A stretch of DNA of 64,000 bases. Source: Nitrospinaceae bacterium. GTDB taxonomy: Bacteria; Nitrospinota; Nitrospinia; Nitrospinales; Nitrospinaceae. How positions within the stretch are numbered: the first letter of the stretch is position 1; each line of letters begins with the position of its first letter. The position numbers were made by a program, and so were the translations under genes. The DNA is taken from the NCBI GenBank assembly GCA_965237905.1, contig OZ250172.1, positions 544,001-608,000 on the forward strand, written 5' to 3'. This document shows, one piece after another, positions 6,212-17,680 of the stretch. The notes beneath the pieces were generated by a model, which searched no databases, had not been told where the DNA came from, and saw nothing but the letters and a program-made list of their open reading frames with translations.

Positions 6212-6356
6212 TGATGCGAGCACTTCCTCTATAAGATCATATTTTTGAATGATTTACGATGAATTTTCTGATATTTGCCCGATCGTGTCTGCTCGGCTCC
6301 CACAACCTCCTGCAGACTGGTTTCTCCAACTGAAACCGATCAAAACTTACAATCAA

Positions 6357-7106
6357 ATGAAATCAACTGTATCGAACTCCCCATTGCCGTTTATAATAGT
6401 GTTTTGGACCTTGATGGGTGTGGGCTCGGGTTGCGCCTCACATCCCATGGTCCATCCGGGTCCTGAGACCCATTCCGATTCCGTTCAGACTTTACCTTAT
6501 CGGGTTGATGGTCGCGTTTATCATCCTTTGAGCAGTTCTTCGGGGTTTGTTCAAGAAGGCATCGCGTCGTGGTATGGCCGGGATTTCCATGGCAAGCTCA
6601 CCTCCAACGGGGAGGTGTATGATATGAATGCCTTGACGGCGGCGCACAAAACACTGCCGTTTAATTCTGTCGTTTTGGTCACCCACCGGGAAAGTGGGGA
6701 AAGTGTTACCGTTCGTATCAATGACCGTGGCCCCTTTGTGGGCGAACGGATTATTGATCTGAGTCATGGTGCGGCAAACAAACTGGGCATGGTTGAAACA
6801 GGAACTGCTCCGGTACACCTTCGGGTGATCAGAGGAGCACAATCATCTCCACCACGGAATGCGGCCGGGACTTCCGCGAAAAAGGGAATCTATTCGGTGC
6901 AAGTGGGCGTCTTTGAAGACCTTGACAATGCCCGGAAGATTTCACACCAATTTAATAACAGCCGGATCTTTGCGGTCAAACAAAGCAACCGGAAATGGTA
7001 CAAAGTTCTTGTTGGGAAATATTCCAACTACGAAAAGGCCCTGGAGCCCATGGACCAGATGCGACTCGAGGGATTTGAAGAAGCATTTATCGTACTGAGC
7101 CCATAG
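6357..7106 (+). CDS. rlpA: septal ring lytic transglycosylase RlpA with C-terminal SPOR domain
   Basis: GIASWYG..FHG, TAAHKTLP, VRINDRGPF, RIIDLS motifs; lipobox GSGC; SPOR-like YSVQVGVF. Confidence 0.92.
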   Translation: MKSTVSNSPLPFIIVFWTLMGVGSGCASHPMVHPGPETHSDSVQTLPYRVDGRVYHPLSSSSGFVQEGIASWYGRDFHGKLTSNGEVYDMNALTAAHKTLPFNSVVLVTHRESGESVTVRINDRGPFVGERIIDLSHGAANKLGMVETGTAPVHLRVIRGAQSSPPRNAAGTSAKKGIYSVQVGVFEDLDNARKISHQFNNSRIFAVKQSNRKWYKVLVGKYSNYEKALEPMDQMRLEGFEEAFIVLSP

Positions 7107-7149
7107 CTCCGGTTACGAGGATTAACAACTGACAAACTATTAGTAAACT

Positions 7150-7623
7150 ATGAGACTGCCGATACTGGATAAACTTGAAAAACAGTTAATGGATTCCAAA
7201 AAAGAACTGGATGTCGATATTCCCAAGGCCCTGAAAATTGCTACGGACATGGGCGACCTCAGCGAAAATGCGGAATATAAGGCGGCGAAAGAACGGCAGA
7301 TGTTCCTGGAGAGCCGTATCTCGCAACTTCAAAAGCGAATTGGAGATATCACTTCCATCGATATCAGCCGCATTCCCAAAGACCGGTCCGGCCTGGGCAG
7401 CACTTTACTTTTAAAACATACCGACTCGGGAGAAGAAAGAAAGTATTTCCTGGTGTTCCCCGAGGAAGTGGATCCTGATACTGGCAAACTCTCCATGGCC
7501 TCCCCAGTCGGAAAAATGCTGGCTGGCAAAATGGAAGGGGATGAGGTTGAGGTGCCGATCGAAGGGGAACGGCAAAACTTTGAAGTCATCCAACTGAAAA
7601 CCATTCATCAGGAGAACGGTTGA
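7150..7623 (+). CDS. greA: transcription elongation factor GreA/GreB family
   Basis: GDLSENAEYKAAKE and SMASPVG motifs. Confidence 0.9.
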   Translation: MRLPILDKLEKQLMDSKKELDVDIPKALKIATDMGDLSENAEYKAAKERQMFLESRISQLQKRIGDITSIDISRIPKDRSGLGSTLLLKHTDSGEERKYFLVFPEEVDPDTGKLSMASPVGKMLAGKMEGDEVEVPIEGERQNFEVIQLKTIHQENG

Positions 7624-7638
7624 AAGACCTGAAACCCC

Positions 7639-8295
7639 ATGGCAAAGCGGCTCATTCCATTCGATAAAATCGCCACCGAGCATCCTTGTTTTCTGGACCC
7701 CGAGGAACGGCCGGACTGGTGCGGCCTGTTTCAAAACAGCGCTCCACTGAAGCTGGAAATCGGATTCGGCAACGGCAATTTTCTCATCGACATGGCCATT
7801 CGCGAACCCCAAAGTAATTTTATTGGAATGGATTTTTACCGTAAGGGAATTCGCAAGGTCATCACACGTATGGATCGGCTCTACCTGAAAAATATCCGGG
7901 TCGCTTATGGCAACGCCAGCGAAAAAATTCCCATTCTTTTTGAAGAGGGTGAGCTCAGCGAGGTATTCATTAATTTTCCGGATCCCTGGCCCAAGAAAAG
8001 GCATCACAAAAGAAGATTGATCAAACCACAATTTGTAGAAACCCTGGCAGGCAAGCTGACACCGCAAGGTAAAGTCCGCATTGCAACGGACTTCGAATCC
8101 TATGCGCAAGAAATCCTGGAAGTCATGCAAGCGAATGCCCAATTCTACAATCCACACGAGGATCTGGGATTTCTCCACGAGCGGAACGATGTCCCCAAAA
8201 CCAAATATGAAAAAGCGTTTCTGGACGCAGGAAAGAAAATCTATTATCTCGAATTTTCCAAAGAGCAGGACTATGCGTTGGCTCCCACCGCATAA
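7639..8295 (+). CDS. trmB: tRNA (guanine-N7)-methyltransferase
   Basis: LEIGFGNG, FPDPWPKKRHHKRR, ATD, TKYE motifs. Confidence 0.95.
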   Translation: MAKRLIPFDKIATEHPCFLDPEERPDWCGLFQNSAPLKLEIGFGNGNFLIDMAIREPQSNFIGMDFYRKGIRKVITRMDRLYLKNIRVAYGNASEKIPILFEEGELSEVFINFPDPWPKKRHHKRRLIKPQFVETLAGKLTPQGKVRIATDFESYAQEILEVMQANAQFYNPHEDLGFLHERNDVPKTKYEKAFLDAGKKIYYLEFSKEQDYALAPTA

Positions 8296-8340
8296 TGGAT
8301 TTAGAAATGCTGTTTTTTGAAACCAATCACGGAGGTTTCC

Positions 8341-10380
8341 TTGGCTAAAGAAAGAGTCCTCATTGTCGATGACGAAAAAAATATAGTCTCCTCTCTTCAG
8401 GAGATATTAAACGACGAGGGGTATGATATCGTCACAGCTGAAGACGGGTTGGACGCCCTTGAAATAGTACAGTCCGAGCCCCCGGATCTGGTGCTGTTGG
8501 ATATCTGGATTCCGGGCATGGACGGGATTGAAGTATTGCAGGCCATCAAAACCTATCACCCTGAAATCGAAGTATTGGTGATGTCCGGCCACGGAACCAT
8601 CGATACCGCCGTGAAAGCGACCAAGCTGGGAGCCTACGACTTTATTGAGAAACCGTTTTCCCTGAATCAACTGGTCCTGTCCGTCGAGAGAGCTCTCAAA
8701 CAAAGAAAAGGCCGGATGAACGGAAGCGGCAAACATGACGCCGCTCAGCACGAACTTCCCCACTGTTTTGAAATGATGGTCGAAGTCAAGAAAGCGGTGA
8801 CCCGAGCGTCTAAAACCAATGCCCCCATCCTGATCCACGGTGAAATGGGGACGGGTAAGGAATATATCGCGCAGGCCATTCACCATAAGAGCAAAAAGTC
8901 CAATTTTCCCCTTCACAAAATCAATTGCGCACTCCGGTCCATGCCGAAAATCCAAATCGAACTGTTTACCCATCAGGATGAAAAAGGCCAGGAAACGAAA
9001 CCAACCCGTGGAGGCGCCGGGAAGAAGGCGGTGTATTTAAAAAATATTGATTCCATGAGCCAGGACCTTCAGGTAAAACTGGCAACCGCCTTAAAGTCCA
9101 CCTCTCCCGGAAAACCGGAGGGCTTTATTCCAGACAGGATTTTTGCCTCTTCTACAAAAGACTTGGAGGCTATGGTTGGGAAAGGAGAGTTTCATTCTGA
9201 CCTGTATGAAACCTTGAAAGAAAACAGCATCAACGTGCCGCCTTTAAGAGATAACCGGGCCCTGATCCCAACCCTGGTGGACGAATATTTTGAAGATTTG
9301 GAGAACAAGGGCAAAGTCGTTTGCAAAAACTTCAACGAAGAAACCATGCGGGTTCTTTGTGAATACGACTGGCCGGAAAACTTCAAGGAACTGCGTTCTG
9401 TCCTGGACCAGATTGCCCGGACCGTCCACCCGGATGAAGAAATCACCTTGAAGGACTTATCGGCCCTGATCAGGCAAACCCGACACCCACACCAGACAAA
9501 ACCAAATACATCCAAAGGCAAGAAGGGAGACCGCCCGCTTCAGCGCACTTTGAAGCGCAGTGTGGTGCTGTGTGGACGCGGTCTGCATTCCGGAATCAAA
9601 ACCGGCCTCATCATGCAACCCTTGCCTCCGGGAAGCGGAATAATTTTCGGTGATATTTCCAGCGGAAACACCATCCCGGCCAAGGTGGAAAACGTGCAAT
9701 CCACGGAATACGCCACCAGCCTGCGCAAGGGCTACGCATCCGTCTCCACGATCGAACATATTATGGCCACCCTCCACATGTACCGGGTCCATAACCTTTT
9801 GATCAAAATTGGAGACGAGGCCCCCGTGATGGATGGATCCGCCAAAGATTTCTGCCAATTGATCGAAGATGGAGATTTCGAGGAACAGGATGCGCTTTAC
9901 GAAGAACTGGTGATTGATAAAACGTACACCTTCGGGTCAAAAGAAGAAGGTGGAGCACATATTTCCATTGAGCCCTATGATGGCTTCAAAGTGAGTTACC
10001 ATATGGAATATCCGGCACCCATAGGGATCATGGAGCACACCTTTGAGTTTAAAGGGGCTGAGAGCTTCAAAGAAGAAATCGCACCGGCACGCACCTTCGG
10101 GTTTGTGAAAGATGTGGCCATGCTGAATAAAATGGGTTTCGGGGTGGGCGGTAAGCTGGATAACTTTATCCTGCTGGGGGACGAAAAAGTCCTCAACACC
10201 ACATTGCGGTATGACAACGAATTCGCACGCCACAAAATCCTGGATATTCTCGGGGATTTCTATCTGCTGGGAAAACCGATCCGCGGCTATATCAAAGCTC
10301 ATAAATCAGGACACACCCAAAACATCGGACTCCTGAAAACCATCAAGGAAGACCTGGCTCAAGCGGTGCCCGTTCATTGA
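8341..10380 (+). CDS. lpxC: fusion: NtrX-like receiver + degenerate sigma54-type AAA+ domain + UDP-3-O-acyl-GlcNAc deacetylase LpxC
   Basis: Receiver VLIVDDE/LLDIW/MSGHG/FIEKP; Walker A GEMGTGKE. From ~9541: QRTL..G.GLHSG, TIEHIMA, EIAPARTFGF, RHKILDILGD, KSGH. TTG start with GGAGG RBS. Confidence 0.9.
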   Translation: MAKERVLIVDDEKNIVSSLQEILNDEGYDIVTAEDGLDALEIVQSEPPDLVLLDIWIPGMDGIEVLQAIKTYHPEIEVLVMSGHGTIDTAVKATKLGAYDFIEKPFSLNQLVLSVERALKQRKGRMNGSGKHDAAQHELPHCFEMMVEVKKAVTRASKTNAPILIHGEMGTGKEYIAQAIHHKSKKSNFPLHKINCALRSMPKIQIELFTHQDEKGQETKPTRGGAGKKAVYLKNIDSMSQDLQVKLATALKSTSPGKPEGFIPDRIFASSTKDLEAMVGKGEFHSDLYETLKENSINVPPLRDNRALIPTLVDEYFEDLENKGKVVCKNFNEETMRVLCEYDWPENFKELRSVLDQIARTVHPDEEITLKDLSALIRQTRHPHQTKPNTSKGKKGDRPLQRTLKRSVVLCGRGLHSGIKTGLIMQPLPPGSGIIFGDISSGNTIPAKVENVQSTEYATSLRKGYASVSTIEHIMATLHMYRVHNLLIKIGDEAPVMDGSAKDFCQLIEDGDFEEQDALYEELVIDKTYTFGSKEEGGAHISIEPYDGFKVSYHMEYPAPIGIMEHTFEFKGAESFKEEIAPARTFGFVKDVAMLNKMGFGVGGKLDNFILLGDEKVLNTTLRYDNEFARHKILDILGDFYLLGKPIRGYIKAHKSGHTQNIGLLKTIKEDLAQAVPVH

Positions 10381-10460
10381 TCAAAATGGGATCGACAAAT
10401 TTATTCTTCACCCCTATCCCTTAATGCCATAAACACAGGCAATCGGGACCCAAGAGAACC

Positions 10461-11090
10461 ATGACCTCCAGCAGTTTTAAAATCGGAATACTGGTGTCCG
10501 GACGCGGCACCAATTTGCAGGCGATCATCGATGCCATTGAAAACGGCGAATTGAACGCTCGCATCGCCGTAGTGCTGAGCAATAAAAAAGAAGCGCCCGC
10601 CCTGGAACGGGCTCAAAAAAAGGGCATCGAAGCGGTATATCTGGACCCCAAACCATTCGCCGGTAAAAAGGAATTTGATCTGGCATTAGCCAGGGAACTT
10701 GAGGACCGCCAAGTCGACTTGATTTGCCTGGCGGGGTACATGCGCATCCTCGGTCCGGAATTCATCAGGAAATTTGAAGGGAAAATCATCAACATTCACC
10801 CGTCACTCCTGCCGGCGTTCCCGGGGCTGGACGTCCAGCAAAAAGCCATCGATCATGGAGTCAAATTTTCCGGGTGTACGGTTCATTTCGTCAACGAAGA
10901 AGTTGATGGCGGCCCCATCATCCTACAAGCGGTAGTGCCCGTCCACCCGTCTGATGACGCGGGGACCCTGGCCGAACGCATTTTGATCCAGGAACATCTT
11001 ATTTATCCGAGAGCGATACAAATGATTGTCGAAAATCGCCTGCATATTAAAAACCGGAAGGTCTCCTACAAAGAAAGCATATCGCAATGA
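10461..11090 (+). CDS. purN: phosphoribosylglycinamide formyltransferase
   Basis: SGRGTNLQA, LAGYMRIL, INIHPSLLP, GCTVHFV..DGGPII motifs. Confidence 0.96.
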   Translation: MTSSSFKIGILVSGRGTNLQAIIDAIENGELNARIAVVLSNKKEAPALERAQKKGIEAVYLDPKPFAGKKEFDLALARELEDRQVDLICLAGYMRILGPEFIRKFEGKIINIHPSLLPAFPGLDVQQKAIDHGVKFSGCTVHFVNEEVDGGPIILQAVVPVHPSDDAGTLAERILIQEHLIYPRAIQMIVENRLHIKNRKVSYKESISQ

Positions 11091-11746
11091 ACTTTAAAAC
11101 CTGCACCATTCTCCTTATTCTGCTTGTACTGTGGCTCCTGCCCGGATCGGCCTTCGCCCTGGACTCCACCGCTATTGTCGATGCCATCCAAAAACAATAT
11201 GACGCCACCGATACTTTTCAGGCCCGGTTCATTCAAAAATCGTATCTGAAGATTCTGGGACAGTCGCAGAAGGCCGAAGGTTTCGTCTCCATCAAAAAAC
11301 CCGGTAAAATGAAATGGGATTACAAGGCCCCGGATCGCCAGATTCTGGTGAGCAACGATCAGGGCCTGTGGCTGTACCTGCCCGACGAAAAGCAGGTCAC
11401 TAAAATGAAAGTTCAAAGCATCTACTCTTCCAACACCCCGGCCCTGTTTCTGGCGGGACGCGGCAAGCTGACCGAATCGTTCACAATCGGAAAAGTGACT
11501 GAAGAGAGCGGGCTTTACGTCGCCGAGTTGATCCCGCGGGATAAGGTACAAAACCTCTCAAAAATGGTGCTGCTGGCCGACAAGAAAAATTTCCAGATCG
11601 TCGGGTCCCGGGTGTATGATAACTTAGGAAACAAAACAGAAATGATATTCAGCAACATCCGAACCAACCCCACCCTTGAAAAGAAATTCTTTCGATTCGA
11701 GGTTCCCAAAGGGGTGGAGCTCATTGATCTTTCTTCCATGGAGTAG
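11087..11746 (+). CDS. lolA: outer membrane lipoprotein carrier protein
   Basis: Signal peptide; F.Q..G...KKPGKMKWDY; F.FEVPKGV. Confidence 0.88.
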   Translation: MNFKTCTILLILLVLWLLPGSAFALDSTAIVDAIQKQYDATDTFQARFIQKSYLKILGQSQKAEGFVSIKKPGKMKWDYKAPDRQILVSNDQGLWLYLPDEKQVTKMKVQSIYSSNTPALFLAGRGKLTESFTIGKVTEESGLYVAELIPRDKVQNLSKMVLLADKKNFQIVGSRVYDNLGNKTEMIFSNIRTNPTLEKKFFRFEVPKGVELIDLSSME

Positions 11747-11757
11747 TTTTATTTATC

Positions 11758-13128
11758 ATGTTTGATTTTGCCGCATTCTCTCTCGACGCCTTCCTGTCTT
11801 TCGGATTCAAAATGATGGCTTTCCTGGTAGGTTTGGCCGCCCTTATTTTCGTCCACGAGATGGGCCACTTTCTGATCGCCCGCAAATGCGGGGTGACAGT
11901 CGAAAAATTCTCCATCGGGTTCGGCCCAAAAATTATTGGATTCAAATCCGGAGGCACCGAATATCTGATCGCCGCCATTCCTCTGGGTGGTTACGTCAAA
12001 ATGAAAGGCGAAGATCCCGAAGAAGAGTTGCCAGACACCCAGGGCTCCTTCTCCGCCGCGTCCGTGTACCAAAGACTGGCCATTGCGTTCGGCGGCCCAC
12101 TGTTTAATATCCTGTTTGCCATCGTTATCTATGCCTGTGTCTATATGGTAGGCATGCCTACCAATGGAACTACTGTCGGCAAAATCCACGACAATTCCCC
12201 TGCCCTGGCGGCAGGCCTCCAAACCGGTGACCGGATCATTGAGGTTGACGGTAAGAAAACTTATTACTGGCACCAATTGACTAAAATTATTCACAACGCT
12301 CCGGGCAAGAAAATGGAGTTCGTGATCGAACGCGATTCGAAAACAATCCTTACCCTTCCCATTACACCCAAAGATAAAGAAACCCCTGACCTGTTTGGCG
12401 ATAAGATAAAGGTAGGATTGATCGGTATCGAAAGACTGCAGCGAAGAATCTCCGCTATCGAAGCGGGTTCCCCTGCCGACAAAGCCGGATTTCAGGTGGG
12501 CGACGATATTCTCGCGATCGATGGCGAAACAATCATGGGACATTCCGACTTGGAAAAAGTCTCCCTGGGAAAACCCAGACAAGTACTGACCTTTAGCCTA
12601 TTGAGAAATGGCAAGGTCATTCCTCTTCAGGTCACTCCTGAACCCAAAACGGTTAAAGACCTCAAAGGCAAGGATATTGAAATCGGATATATCGGATTCG
12701 GGGTCACCGGGGTGATGGTGACCGAACAATACTCGTTTCTGGGAGCCATCCAACGGGGGCTCGAGGAAACCTGGGAGTGGACTTACCGGATCGGTGTCAG
12801 CATCAAAAAACTGCTCACCGGGTCCATTTCTCCAAAAAACATCGGCGGCCCCATTCTGATCTTCCAGGCTTACGGCCATCAGGCGGAGCAAGGACTCCTG
12901 GATTTTGTCATATTGACCGCCATACTCAGCATCAACCTGGGATTGTTGAACCTTCTGCCTATTCCGGTTTTGGATGGCGGGCACATATTTTTCTTCCTGA
13001 TCGAAATCGTCAAAGGCAAACCCATCAGCGAATTAAACCGGGAGCGGGCCGCTCAGGTCGGTCTCTTCATGTTGCTCTCGCTGATGATTTTTGCTTTTTA
13101 TAATGACATCATGAGGGTCTTCAATTAA
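11758..13128 (+). CDS. rseP: RIP metalloprotease RseP (two PDZ domains)
   Basis: HEMGH, FSIGFGP, IPLGGYVKM, NLLPIPVLDGG motifs. Confidence 0.95.
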   Translation: MFDFAAFSLDAFLSFGFKMMAFLVGLAALIFVHEMGHFLIARKCGVTVEKFSIGFGPKIIGFKSGGTEYLIAAIPLGGYVKMKGEDPEEELPDTQGSFSAASVYQRLAIAFGGPLFNILFAIVIYACVYMVGMPTNGTTVGKIHDNSPALAAGLQTGDRIIEVDGKKTYYWHQLTKIIHNAPGKKMEFVIERDSKTILTLPITPKDKETPDLFGDKIKVGLIGIERLQRRISAIEAGSPADKAGFQVGDDILAIDGETIMGHSDLEKVSLGKPRQVLTFSLLRNGKVIPLQVTPEPKTVKDLKGKDIEIGYIGFGVTGVMVTEQYSFLGAIQRGLEETWEWTYRIGVSIKKLLTGSISPKNIGGPILIFQAYGHQAEQGLLDFVILTAILSINLGLLNLLPIPVLDGGHIFFFLIEIVKGKPISELNRERAAQVGLFMLLSLMIFAFYNDIMRVFN

Positions 13129-13155
13129 CGTCCTCCAAAAAGAGGGTTTTTCTCT

Positions 13156-13458
13156 ATGCCCCACTCGAACACAGAATCCCTAACGCTGTCCCGCTTGGAA
13201 GACCTCAGGGACACCGCACGGAAACTCTCGATTGAAATCCTGTTCGCCGACTTGTCCGACCCGGAAATTCCCACTCAAAGCGGTACCTGTAAAGTGCGCG
13301 GTGAGGATTTGATCGTGGTGGACAAACGATTGTCGGCTCAACGTCAGATCGAGGTGATCCTTAACATCTTCCAACAATTCGATTGGGATGACGTCTATGT
13401 CGCTTCCTGGATTCGGGAGCACCTTGATAATCCCAAACTCACCGGCCTCACTTCATGA
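13156..13458 (+). CDS. hypothetical protein
   Basis: GAGG RBS; overlaps the pepM start (ATGA); SG.C.VRG..I.VDK pattern. Confidence 0.7.
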   Translation: MPHSNTESLTLSRLEDLRDTARKLSIEILFADLSDPEIPTQSGTCKVRGEDLIVVDKRLSAQRQIEVILNIFQQFDWDDVYVASWIREHLDNPKLTGLTS

Positions 13459-15212
13459 CTCTGCTCAGCCAAAATTTACCGGAACAAAGGCGCGGCAAAC
13501 TCAAAGCCTTGCTCACTCAGGGCAAACTCGTCCGCGTCATGGAAGCCCACAACGGTCTCAGCGGCATCGTCGCCGACACCACCTGCGTGGAAGGAAAATC
13601 CGGCGACCAGTCGGTCACCCGTCAGTTCGACGCCCTCTGGGAAAGCAGTCTGACCGATTCCGCTTCCAAGGGTCATCCGGATATTGAAGTGGTCAGCTTC
13701 GATTCCCGCCTGCATACCATTCAGGAAATCCTGACCGTCACGCAAAAACCGATGATCGTTGACGGCGATACCGGCGGCGACCCCAACACCTTCGAGTACA
13801 TGGTGTCCAAAATGGAACGGGCCGGCGTCTCGGCAGTCATCATCGAGGACAAAGTATTTCCCAAACGCAACAGCCTGGAAGCCGGTACCAGTCAGGTTCT
13901 GCAGGAACCCGAAGTGTTCGCGCAGAAAATCAAGCGCGGAAAAAAAGTGCAGGCCACCGATGAGTTCATGATCATCGCCCGCATTGAAAGCCTGATCGCC
14001 GGCACCGGAATGGAAGACGCGCTCGCCCGCGCCCGAATTTATCTGCAGGCGGGGGTAGACGGCATCATGATCCACTCCAAGTCTAAACAGCCGGATGAGA
14101 TCATGGAGTTTGCCGGGAAATACCAGAGTCTCCTCAAAGAACTCGAGTTGAGTAAACCCCTCGTGTGTGTGCCCACCACCTACAACAATATCCTTGAGGA
14201 AGAACTGCAGGCCGCAGGATTCCAGATCATCATTTACGCCAACCATCTGTTACGCTCCGCGTATAAAGCGATGCGCGAAACCGCCAAATCTATTCTGTCG
14301 AACCAACGCTCGCTCGAAGCCGACCCCCTGTGCGCCCCGGTGCGTGAAATATTCGATGCCGTCGGTTTTCTGGACGTTAAGGAAAAAGACCAGCAGGATG
14401 AGACCAATACCAATATCCCGGTCATCATCCCCGCCGCCGGAGAAGCGCCGGCCATCGCCCCTGTTCTCAAAAATACGCCCAAGGCCATGGCCGATATCGC
14501 CGGCAAAACCCTACTGGCCCGGCAGGCCCAAACCCTCAACCAGAACCATCTGACGGATATCACCGTGGTGACAGGTTACGCAGGCGATAAAATGAAGGGC
14601 GAAGGGATTTCCTTCCTGCAAAACAAGGATTACAAAAAGGGCACCGAACTGCACAGCCTGCTCACCGCCCAGGAAAAAATGCACAACGGATTTCTGATGC
14701 TGTACTCCGATATTCTCATTGAAAACCATGTGATCGCCCAATTGCTGGCGTCCCGGGAAGATATTGTGCTGGTGCTGGACAACTCCATTCAATACTTGGA
14801 ATCGGTGGAGGGCAAGGCGACCGATTACGTGATCAGCCGCAACCGGCGGAACCGGAACCGCCGAAGCATCAACTTCGATCACCAGAACACCCTTGCCAAA
14901 ATCGGTAAAAATATTGATCCGGCGTTAGCCACTCACGAGTTCATCGGCCTCGCCAAATTCTCAAAGACCGGAGCCGAACAGTTTCTTCAGACCTATCACG
15001 ACGTGTTGAAAAACCTGGAGGGCAAAGTCCAGGAAGCGGAGGACATTTCCCAGTTCCGCCTTACCGACCTGATTCAGGAGATGGTCGATCGTGGTTTCAA
15101 CGTCCATTACCTGGAAATCCACAAAGGCTGGCTGGAAATCCATTTTCCCAAAGACATCGAACAGGCCAACGAATTGTTCACCGTACAGGAACATCCCTCG
15201 GAAGTTATGTAG
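13455..15212 (+). CDS. pepM: phosphoenolpyruvate mutase fused to C-terminal nucleotidyltransferase (PntC/LicC-like)
   Basis: Diagnostic EDK-X5-NS (EDKVFPKRNS), EAHNGLSG, DGDTGG, ARIES, YANH; C-terminal IPAAG..PKAM..TGY..YSDI..W.EI. Confidence 0.9.
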   Translation: MTLLSQNLPEQRRGKLKALLTQGKLVRVMEAHNGLSGIVADTTCVEGKSGDQSVTRQFDALWESSLTDSASKGHPDIEVVSFDSRLHTIQEILTVTQKPMIVDGDTGGDPNTFEYMVSKMERAGVSAVIIEDKVFPKRNSLEAGTSQVLQEPEVFAQKIKRGKKVQATDEFMIIARIESLIAGTGMEDALARARIYLQAGVDGIMIHSKSKQPDEIMEFAGKYQSLLKELELSKPLVCVPTTYNNILEEELQAAGFQIIIYANHLLRSAYKAMRETAKSILSNQRSLEADPLCAPVREIFDAVGFLDVKEKDQQDETNTNIPVIIPAAGEAPAIAPVLKNTPKAMADIAGKTLLARQAQTLNQNHLTDITVVTGYAGDKMKGEGISFLQNKDYKKGTELHSLLTAQEKMHNGFLMLYSDILIENHVIAQLLASREDIVLVLDNSIQYLESVEGKATDYVISRNRRNRNRRSINFDHQNTLAKIGKNIDPALATHEFIGLAKFSKTGAEQFLQTYHDVLKNLEGKVQEAEDISQFRLTDLIQEMVDRGFNVHYLEIHKGWLEIHFPKDIEQANELFTVQEHPSEVM

Positions 15213-17290: not shown

Positions 17291-17680
17291 TTATTTCATC
17301 TTTTCGCCTTCTTTCATCATGGTGTCCTTAGGCATGGTCCCTTCTTTATCCATCTTTTCGCCTTCTTTCATCATGGTGTCTTTAGGCATGGTCCCTTCTT
17401 TATCCATCTTTTCGCCTTCTTTCATCATGGTGTCCTTAGGCATGGTCCCTTCTTTATCCATCTTTTCGCCTTCTTTCATCATGGTGTCTTTAGGCATGGT
17501 CCCTTCTTTATCCATCTTTTCGCCTTCTTTCATCATGGTGTCTTTAGGCATGGTCCCTTCTTTATCCATCTTTTCGCCTTCTTTCATCATGGTGTCCTCG
17601 GTACAGGCCACACCCGACAACATCACTAACAAGGAAAGAATGACCAAATAAAAAGATTTGTTTTTAAGCATCGTTTTCAT
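17291..17680 (-). CDS. Met/Lys-rich tandem-repeat lipoprotein (MXKDX-like)
   Basis: Signal peptide with lipobox GVAC; 5 full plus 1 partial copies of DTMMKEGEKMDKEGTMPK; GGGGGA RBS. Confidence 0.85.
   Translation of the reverse strand: MKTMLKNKSFYLVILSLLVMLSGVACTEDTMMKEGEKMDKEGTMPKDTMMKEGEKMDKEGTMPKDTMMKEGEKMDKEGTMPKDTMMKEGEKMDKEGTMPKDTMMKEGEKMDKEGTMPKDTMMKEGEKMK
17294..17596. repeat. 54-bp coding tandem repeat (~5.6 copies)
   Basis: Near-identical 54-nt units, differing at a synonymous C/T site. Confidence 0.95.

Follow-up and report, generated by a model that had tools for sequence, protein, structure and literature searches.

LpxC catalyzes the step that commits the cell to making the lipid A of the outer membrane. 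In a 64,000-nucleotide stretch of contig OZ250172.1 from a Nitrospinaceae bacterium, referred to here as the window, this enzyme is encoded as the C-terminal part of a single unbroken open reading frame (ORF) of 679 amino acids (aa) on the plus strand (8341..10380), the N-terminal part of which is a response regulator of the NtrX type. The fusion is a real, conserved and essential gene, and provides the sole LpxC match in the genome of the window (G000, 96% complete), in which lpxA, lpxB and lpxK are also found. On balance we lean towards the reading that the NtrX-type receiver on this sole LpxC is phosphorylated by an NtrY-family membrane kinase encoded elsewhere, docks onto the enzyme and would directly tune its deacetylase activity. 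Residue numbers refer to the 679-aa window protein throughout.

The initial annotation of this ORF described three parts in one frame, and each was recovered by Pfam. The receiver is intact, with all of the residues needed for phosphorylation (D10-D11, D54, S82 and K104-P105), and carries the NtrX-type signature of a Trp at D+2 followed by S-G-H (W56, H84), a signature that also aligns with Brucella NtrX. The AAA+ part keeps Walker A, lacks GAFTGA and has YLKNI at the Walker B position, as had been described. A full LpxC takes the place of the usual Fis-type helix-turn-helix (HTH); PF03331 scores 268 bits (E 9.9e-80) over 267 of 268 profile positions, TIGR00325 is passed at 229.8 against a cut-off of 187.25, and the window protein has no Pfam match to HTH_8. 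The linker lacks about 55 aa of Fis-type HTH, which alignment places here in longer (730-aa) relatives, with HTH_8 matches in relatives. E472-H473, H631-K632-D635 and H658 align to Pseudomonas aeruginosa LpxC, and we take the E-H, HKxxD and late His of LpxC to be its zinc ligands and catalytic residues. The model of the window protein matches Aquifex LpxC with a Foldseek TM-score of 0.88 (target-normalized), and a 450-aa short relative matches the LpxC fold with a root-mean-square deviation of 1.3. For aa 6-380, the best PDB match by sequence and by fold is Brucella abortus NtrX (5m7n). NF051870 (NtrX) is the best-scoring model for the window protein, yet its 265.7 bits fall below the cut-off of 600. 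By sequence and fold the window protein is thus a bona fide LpxC with predicted deacetylase activity; it appears to resemble NtrX in the working of its receiver, yet by their defining features belongs neither to NtrX nor to the sigma54 activators.

An assembly artefact, a frameshift and an internal start were each considered and ruled out by homologues, contigs and start-codon context. The receiver and LpxC lie in one protein in 119 of the 120 best homologues (54-93% identity; the named ones are Nitrospinota), which rejects an assembly artefact. Public contigs from two runs of a single sample, which may be the source of the window, show 0 differences to it, and contigs from two further samples span the junction with listed indels (-3; -1/+1) that preserve the frame. 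One low-depth contig has an unexplained 91-base skip at the junction; apart from this, the contigs show no break between the two parts. The absence of a separate start or ribosome-binding site for LpxC, also noted in the initial annotation, was borne out. The sole in-frame start candidate close to the junction is the TTG of L404. A separate start is unlikely because this codon is some 20 nt away from the closest purine-rich stretch, and its use would remove the conserved Q401-R402-T403. Scans of the locus for sigma-70 promoters and terminators gave chance-level results, and no strict sigma54 motif was found upstream of the fusion gene. An apparent kinase-receiver-LpxC triple fusion at locus L207 (1378-aa frame) was also ruled out, as ntrY lies in a different frame.

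The fusion is the rule within the phylum, which is Nitrospinota by match labels. An LpxC match is present in 108 of 120 phylum genomes, exactly one in each, and near-complete genomes have exactly one in 56 of 57 cases. These matches sit in open frames of at least 460 aa in 104 of the 108, the remaining four reaching contig ends, and all 30 translated loci start with a receiver. A search for the architecture across genomes, as had been proposed, collected 515 sequences, of which 345 are receiver-LpxC fusions, and the expectation that this gene is the only lpxC of its genome was confirmed. A scan of 2 of the 64 parts of the GTDB collection found 36 fusion loci, two of them frameshifted, among the best 80 loci. 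By record title these belong to Syntrophobacteria, Desulfomonilia, Desulfobulbia, Binatia, Thermoanaerobaculia, Holophagae, Terriglobia, Thermodesulfovibrionia, Aminicenantes and Nitrospinota. Beyond Nitrospinota, the fusion recurs in Binatota, Acidobacteriota, Thermodesulfobacteriota and Nitrospirota, and a rough extrapolation from the two GTDB parts suggests about a thousand species with it. It is the only LpxC match in 30 of the 33 GTDB-scan genomes tested. The genomes of L122 (G150), L104 (G133) and L112 (G141) have a second LpxC in addition to the fusion, one being full and stand-alone and two partial; these copies may be recent transfers or ongoing replacements. In the phylum of Syntrophobacter the fusion is patchy, since most LpxC frames among the matches listed in a 201-genome sample are of stand-alone size. 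Databases annotate the fusion merely as LpxC or NtrX.

Conservation separates the ends of the protein from its middle. The predicted phospho-acceptor D54 is kept in 343 of the 345 fusions, K104 in 344, and S/T82, W56 and H84 in every one; E472, H473, H631, K632 and D635 are likewise invariant, with H658 in 344. Two proteins, P0141 and P0140, carry Asn or Ser for the acceptor Asp and represent natural non-phosphorylatable variants. Across 34 dereplicated relatives with AAA+, the receiver averages 63% identity to the window protein, LpxC 62% and AAA+ 32%. In 13 close pairs, the ratio of nonsynonymous to synonymous substitution rates (dN/dS) lies between 0.00 and 0.10 in the receiver and, over 12 of these pairs, between 0.01 and 0.18 in LpxC; the middle part spans 0.065-0.50. 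These ranges indicate that the receiver is constrained as tightly as the enzyme, and that the AAA+ remnant is relaxed yet not neutral. Among the 199 AAA-bearing fusions, GAFTGA occurs in none and the Walker B Asp-Glu pair in one, and the sensor-II Arg is replaced by Lys in 163. The Walker A residues G167, G170, G172 and K173 are present in 196-199 of these 199 sequences (not dereplicated; K173 in 197), and the P-loop Lys in 33 of 35 dereplicated rows. The C-terminal ends are diverse; eight are listed, each occurring once among 94 representatives.

The domain architecture itself has been reduced repeatedly. Architecture classes were set by linker length, which misclassed at least one protein (P0130) and makes the HTH counts approximate. 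On this basis the 345 fusions comprise 115 with receiver-AAA-HTH-LpxC, 84 with receiver-AAA-LpxC (the window type), 13 with receiver-HTH-LpxC and 133 with receiver-LpxC. AAA+ is absent in 146 of the 345, and the linker of AAA-less forms is 34-125 aa long. A tree in which the AAA-less forms make up one clade was rejected by the approximately unbiased (AU) test (p 4e-36, with the very long branch P0224 left out). The receiver-LpxC pair is therefore the conserved unit. An AAA-less receiver-LpxC also occurs in the window's own order, at L232 (G039:C134), as an independent loss. The initial annotation had proposed that a transcription factor was repurposed as a phospho-module directly on the enzyme. 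The comparative evidence supports this well, but the AAA+ domain, being absent from 146 fusions, is not an essential switch. An HTH-sized insert, present in about 128 of the 345 fusions with HTH_8 matches in some, would also fit a protein with two jobs, in which the LpxC part signals the level of substrate or product to an NtrX still active in gene regulation, and the GAFTGA-less NtrX of Brucella acts as an atypical repressor (PMC6158489). We consider this highly improbable, as the insert is missing from the window protein and from about 217 of the 345 fusions, GAFTGA is missing from all 199 AAA-bearing ones, and the HTH changes state approximately nine times on the tree.

A single origin is the simplest reading of the trees. 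In the LpxC tree, the 56 fused domains group together in a single clade apart from the 60 unfused ones (FastTree support 1.0; 99 by the SH-like approximate likelihood ratio test, SH-aLRT, on a 60-row subset), these values coming from unrooted trees and from an unfused set free of proteobacterial sequences. None of the 60 receiver-less LpxC domains is nested within the fused clade. Low-scoring unfused LpxC of the G120 phylum, considered as secondarily split members, likewise gave none inside it. The receiver-only tree (112 columns) has too little resolution for a test of a single origin and places most fused receivers among unfused ones of the Trp type, with six elsewhere. We infer a single fusion event, after which AAA+ and HTH were lost repeatedly, the direction not being given by the trees alone. 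An unfused lpxC lies directly upstream of DUF4390-ntrY at L134, L135, L158 and L208. At the acidobacterial loci L134, L135 and L158, the order is lpxC-DUF4390-ntrY-ntrX, with an NtrX that still has GAFTGA, Walker B and an HTH-like end; this unfused order is likely the earlier state.

The kinase that would serve the receiver is found away from the fusion. The initial annotation saw no histidine kinase nearby, which holds for the scanned flanking genes, but a candidate NtrY is encoded 92 kb upstream of the fusion, outside the window. A DUF4390-ntrY pair lies behind mutS at G000:C1:457650-460689 and has no response regulator next to it, the DUF4390 gene being ahead of an NtrY (G000:C1:458377-460689) with NtrY_N, HAMP, PAS, HisKA with a HEIKN box, and HATPase. 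This NtrY is the best match in G000 of the kinases that adjoin the fusion elsewhere, at 52-53% identity, the next best reaching 34%. DUF4390-ntrY stands directly upstream of the fusion at 7 of 8 loci in other families of the phylum and at 0 of 11 in the window's order, where the fusion comes after greA-trmB instead; the direct arrangement belongs to the deeper-branching families of the phylum. Of the 36 fusion loci of the GTDB scan, 13 have ntrY upstream. Within the phylum, 103 of 120 genomes retain an ntrY-like match, the kind of co-occurring kinase that the initial annotation had suggested looking for. No receiver was found beside ntrY at the 30 best loci (flank at most 1.5 kb, below 1 kb in four). 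Each of the five further receiver-AAA+ proteins in G000 has GAFTGA or GSFTGA and lacks the NtrX-type Trp. With no neighboring regulator and with these five unlike the NtrX type, this genome contains both an NtrY and an NtrX-type receiver that are unpaired. Gene order and co-retention make DUF4390-ntrY the likely partner of the fusion.

The same observations bear on whether the fusion does anything at all. LpxC could be constitutive, with the receiver as a passive passenger, a folding aid or a device for co-expression. Such a fusion could arise easily, since lpxC neighbors DUF4390-ntrY-ntrX in unfused genomes, and the N-terminal part of an essential gene is hard to shed cleanly. We rate this as very improbable, given that the receiver stayed through repeated loss of AAA+ and HTH, its dN/dS is as low as that of the enzyme, the kinase was retained after the operon split, and none of 60 receiver-less LpxC domains is nested in the fused clade.

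The regulatory tie between NtrYX and lpxC has precedents. In Desulfovibrio vulgaris, lpxC is the single target of DVU2934, labelled ntrX, and in Syntrophobacter fumaroxidans, according to the same authors, lpxC adjoins the orthologous operon (PMC3333781). DVU2934 has GAFTGA (PMC4641369). In a D. alaskensis mutant of the NtrY-labelled kinase, lpxC alone was raised (PMC4045070). The Desulfovibrio systems (DVU2931/DVU2934; Dde_3000/Dde_3003) thus likewise pair an NtrY-type kinase with an ntrX-labelled protein of receiver, AAA+ and DNA-binding domains dedicated to lpxC; for DVU2934, orthology is taken from the gene labels used in the papers and from gene order rather than from protein alignment. 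The difference is that the Desulfovibrio NtrX keeps GAFTGA and DNA binding and acts at a sigma54 promoter of lpxC, whereas the window regulator is fused and is devoid of GAFTGA, Walker B and HTH. Because the unfused Desulfovibrio NtrX controls lpxC transcription, the fusion appears to join a regulator to its own target; a transcription circuit in which NtrYX was dedicated to lpxC would have turned into a protein-level one. The alphaproteobacterial NtrX proteins (Brucella 5m7n/5m7o/5m7p; Rhodobacter, Caulobacter) are closest to aa 6-380, that of Brucella being GAFTGA-less too, and alphaproteobacterial NtrYX influences lpxC and lipopolysaccharide (LPS) levels. They have many DNA targets and no enzyme domain and, unlike the window protein, keep the Walker B acidic residues. 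In Rhodobacter, loss of NtrYX raises lpxC 8.8-fold by an indirect route (PMC7240162). DUF4390 corresponds to PlrP, a third component that restrains the phosphatase activity of its kinase (PMC13001219). As in G000, the Bordetella PlrP-PlrS-PlrR system has a DUF4390 gene directly ahead of a HAMP-PAS-HisKA kinase with a HEIKN H-box; PlrR has a DNA-binding output, and LpxC is nowhere mentioned in PMC13001219.

The enzyme domain carries a possible trace of the receiver upon its surface. Fused LpxC has V409, G422 and I424 in place of polar residues, and K489 in place of what is mostly Glu. The full set of four occurs in 49 of 56 fused LpxC, and none of the 60 unfused ones has three or more. The positions alternate along neighboring strands of the first LpxC sheet, and the residues between them are mostly hydrophobic in both sets, so that the patch is probably an outward face. 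It flanks the hairpin that bears H416, the E. coli counterpart of which we take to be an activity-determining residue. AlphaFold2 gave the natural 450-aa short form a predicted TM-score (pTM) of 0.85 despite 45 disordered linker residues. As a match of LpxC alone on the 450-aa length has a TM-score of only 0.58, the model seems confident about the relative position of receiver and LpxC. A two-chain prediction (receiver aa 1-124 with LpxC aa 398-675) scored 0.00 with controls that were also unfolded, and so counts neither way. Mean-field coupling of receiver and LpxC was underpowered, with an effective depth of 84 for 392 columns, and gave top pairs that look like gap or lineage noise and were left unused.

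Under the reading we lean towards, NtrY, modulated by a periplasmic, PlrP-like DUF4390 protein, would set the phosphorylation of D54. The receiver would bind the new hydrophobic face of the first LpxC beta-sheet (V409, G422, I424 and K489), beside the H416 hairpin, and phosphorylation would alter this contact and thereby change lipid A flux. As to sign, we have a slight preference for an unphosphorylated receiver that damps LpxC and a phosphorylation that releases it, since the ancestral NtrX, of the sigma54 type, promoted the expression of lpxC. The AAA+ remnant would serve as a scaffold that can be dispensed with and that may bind nucleotide even now, though without hydrolysing it. A wider proposal extends this across Nitrospinota and into parts of at least four further phyla, in which a DUF4390-NtrY envelope sensor would exert allosteric control over LpxC via a docking face evolved for the purpose, and in the long forms the dead AAA+ P-loop would add a nucleotide input; this we hold tentatively, as falling just short of probable.

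Phosphorylation may instead act indirectly, through stability (a degradation signal that depends on phosphorylation and is read by the LapB-like adaptor or a protease), dimer state or membrane tethering by NtrY, with the rate per molecule unchanged. G000 encodes a LapB-like protein (G000:C1:1527671-1529011), a 447-aa frame that combines hydrophobic segments at the N-terminus and TPR repeats with a rubredoxin ribbon at the C-terminus; it scores 106.7 bits and so lies below the family cut-off of 363. Its N-terminus may be a fused LapA-like part. Phosphorylation-driven dimerization of receivers is common and counts for the indirect route, as do the long, variable linkers, and all of the conservation evidence fits this route as well. 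Turnover controls LpxC in E. coli, and recruitment to the membrane does so in Neisseria (PMC12444477). On the other side, the short-form model sets the receiver on LpxC within one chain, the C-terminal ends are variable, and G000 has no match to PF11893, the YejM-type DUF3413. We regard the indirect route as unlikely, though with a fair claim to attention.

Several points weigh against direct control by docking. D54 is substituted in two of the 345 fusions. Published work points to both signs, as lpxC rises on loss of ntrY(X) in Desulfovibrio and Rhodobacter. The gene ntrY is not adjacent at 23 of the 36 GTDB fusion loci, including all of the acidobacterial ones. Given the single origin of fused LpxC, the patch is one evolutionary event kept by selection and not 56. 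The full-length window model, from a 27-sequence alignment, has a pTM of 0.45 and predicts no fixed domain arrangement, and that the receiver may use the patch is suggested by the alternating strand pattern. The presence of the LapB-like protein means that proteolytic control may coexist. The initial annotation had spoken of a different way to regulate LPS flux; the phospho-module has comparative evidence in its favor, but it need not replace proteolysis.

The routes of LpxC control covered by a 2025 review are proteolysis, binding of LapB and MurA, Ght, and transcription through NtrYX, and the words "fusion" and "fused" are absent from it (PMC12444477). LapB lowers LpxC activity by about 80%, MurA raises it in Pseudomonas, and control is understood in few Proteobacteria only (PMC12444477). 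E. coli FtsH/LapB/YejM, Pseudomonas MurA and Neisseria Ght resemble the present proposal in that a bound partner alters LpxC, and differ from a fused receiver in being separate proteins that act without phosphorylation. A receiver that gates an enzyme in the same chain is familiar from CheB and PleD, whose outputs are signalling enzymes, whereas the output of the fusion is an essential enzyme of envelope biosynthesis. No description of a receiver-LpxC fusion was found in the literature searched, a search that had subscription journals outside its coverage and took only the top-ranked results of larger sets. LpxC sets lipid A flux and is an antibiotic target. If the proposal is true, phosphorylation-gated entry into lipid A synthesis would be a mode of control beside proteolysis, partner binding and transcription, and the fusion points to direct phospho-control in a phylum of nitrite oxidizers and in several little-studied phyla. 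The sensing and output of NtrYX would come down to a single measurable enzyme activity rather than a broad regulon. A switchable allosteric surface on LpxC, if there is one, would offer a site apart from the zinc pocket of hydroxamate inhibitors; one soluble protein would serve for both questions. The fusions also make up a clear series, in which a transcription factor joins its own target and goes on to lose its ATPase and its DNA-binding part.

Features of the fusion gene by window position
Feature	Position	Strand	Basis
GGAGG ribosome-binding site	8331..8335	+	sequence; 5 nt ahead of TTG start
ntrX::lpxC fusion gene, 679 aa, sole lpxC of genome	8341..10380	+	ORF, Pfam, TIGR00325, genome search
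NtrX-type receiver, aa 6-115	8356..8685	+	Pfam PF00072 Response_reg, E 1.9e-33
D54, predicted phospho-acceptor	8500..8502	+	conserved in 343/345 fusions
Decayed sigma54-type AAA+ core, aa 145-297, without GAFTGA and Walker B acidic pair	8773..9231	+	Pfam Sigma54_activat
Walker A P-loop, retained, aa 167-174	8839..8862	+	K173 in 197/199 AAA-bearing fusions
AAA+ lid, aa 306-387, Lys replacing Arg at sensor-II	9256..9501	+	Pfam, alignment
Short low-confidence linker	9481..9540	+	model confidence (pLDDT) <50 at aa 379-397; alignment
Complete LpxC deacetylase domain, aa 401-669	9541..10347	+	Pfam, TIGR00325, fold; E472, H473, H631, K632, D635, H658
Span with fusion-specific patch V409, G422, I424, K489, predicted receiver-docking face	9565..9807	+	comparison of fused and unfused LpxC

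Around the fusion, the gene order rlpA-greA-trmB-fusion-purN-lolA-rseP-100-aa ORF-pepM (window 6249-15212) is shared by several genomes of the window's order. The 100-aa ORF (13156-13458, plus strand) has no Pfam match and is conserved at 43-50% between rseP and pepM in relatives. The pepM product (13455-15212, plus strand) is a phosphoenolpyruvate mutase fused to a nucleotidyl-transferase-like domain, with 68-76% identity in relatives, which suggests phosphonate biosynthesis. Further downstream, a 129-aa lipoprotein-like ORF on the minus strand (17291-17680) contains about five 18-residue repeats rich in Met, Lys and Glu.

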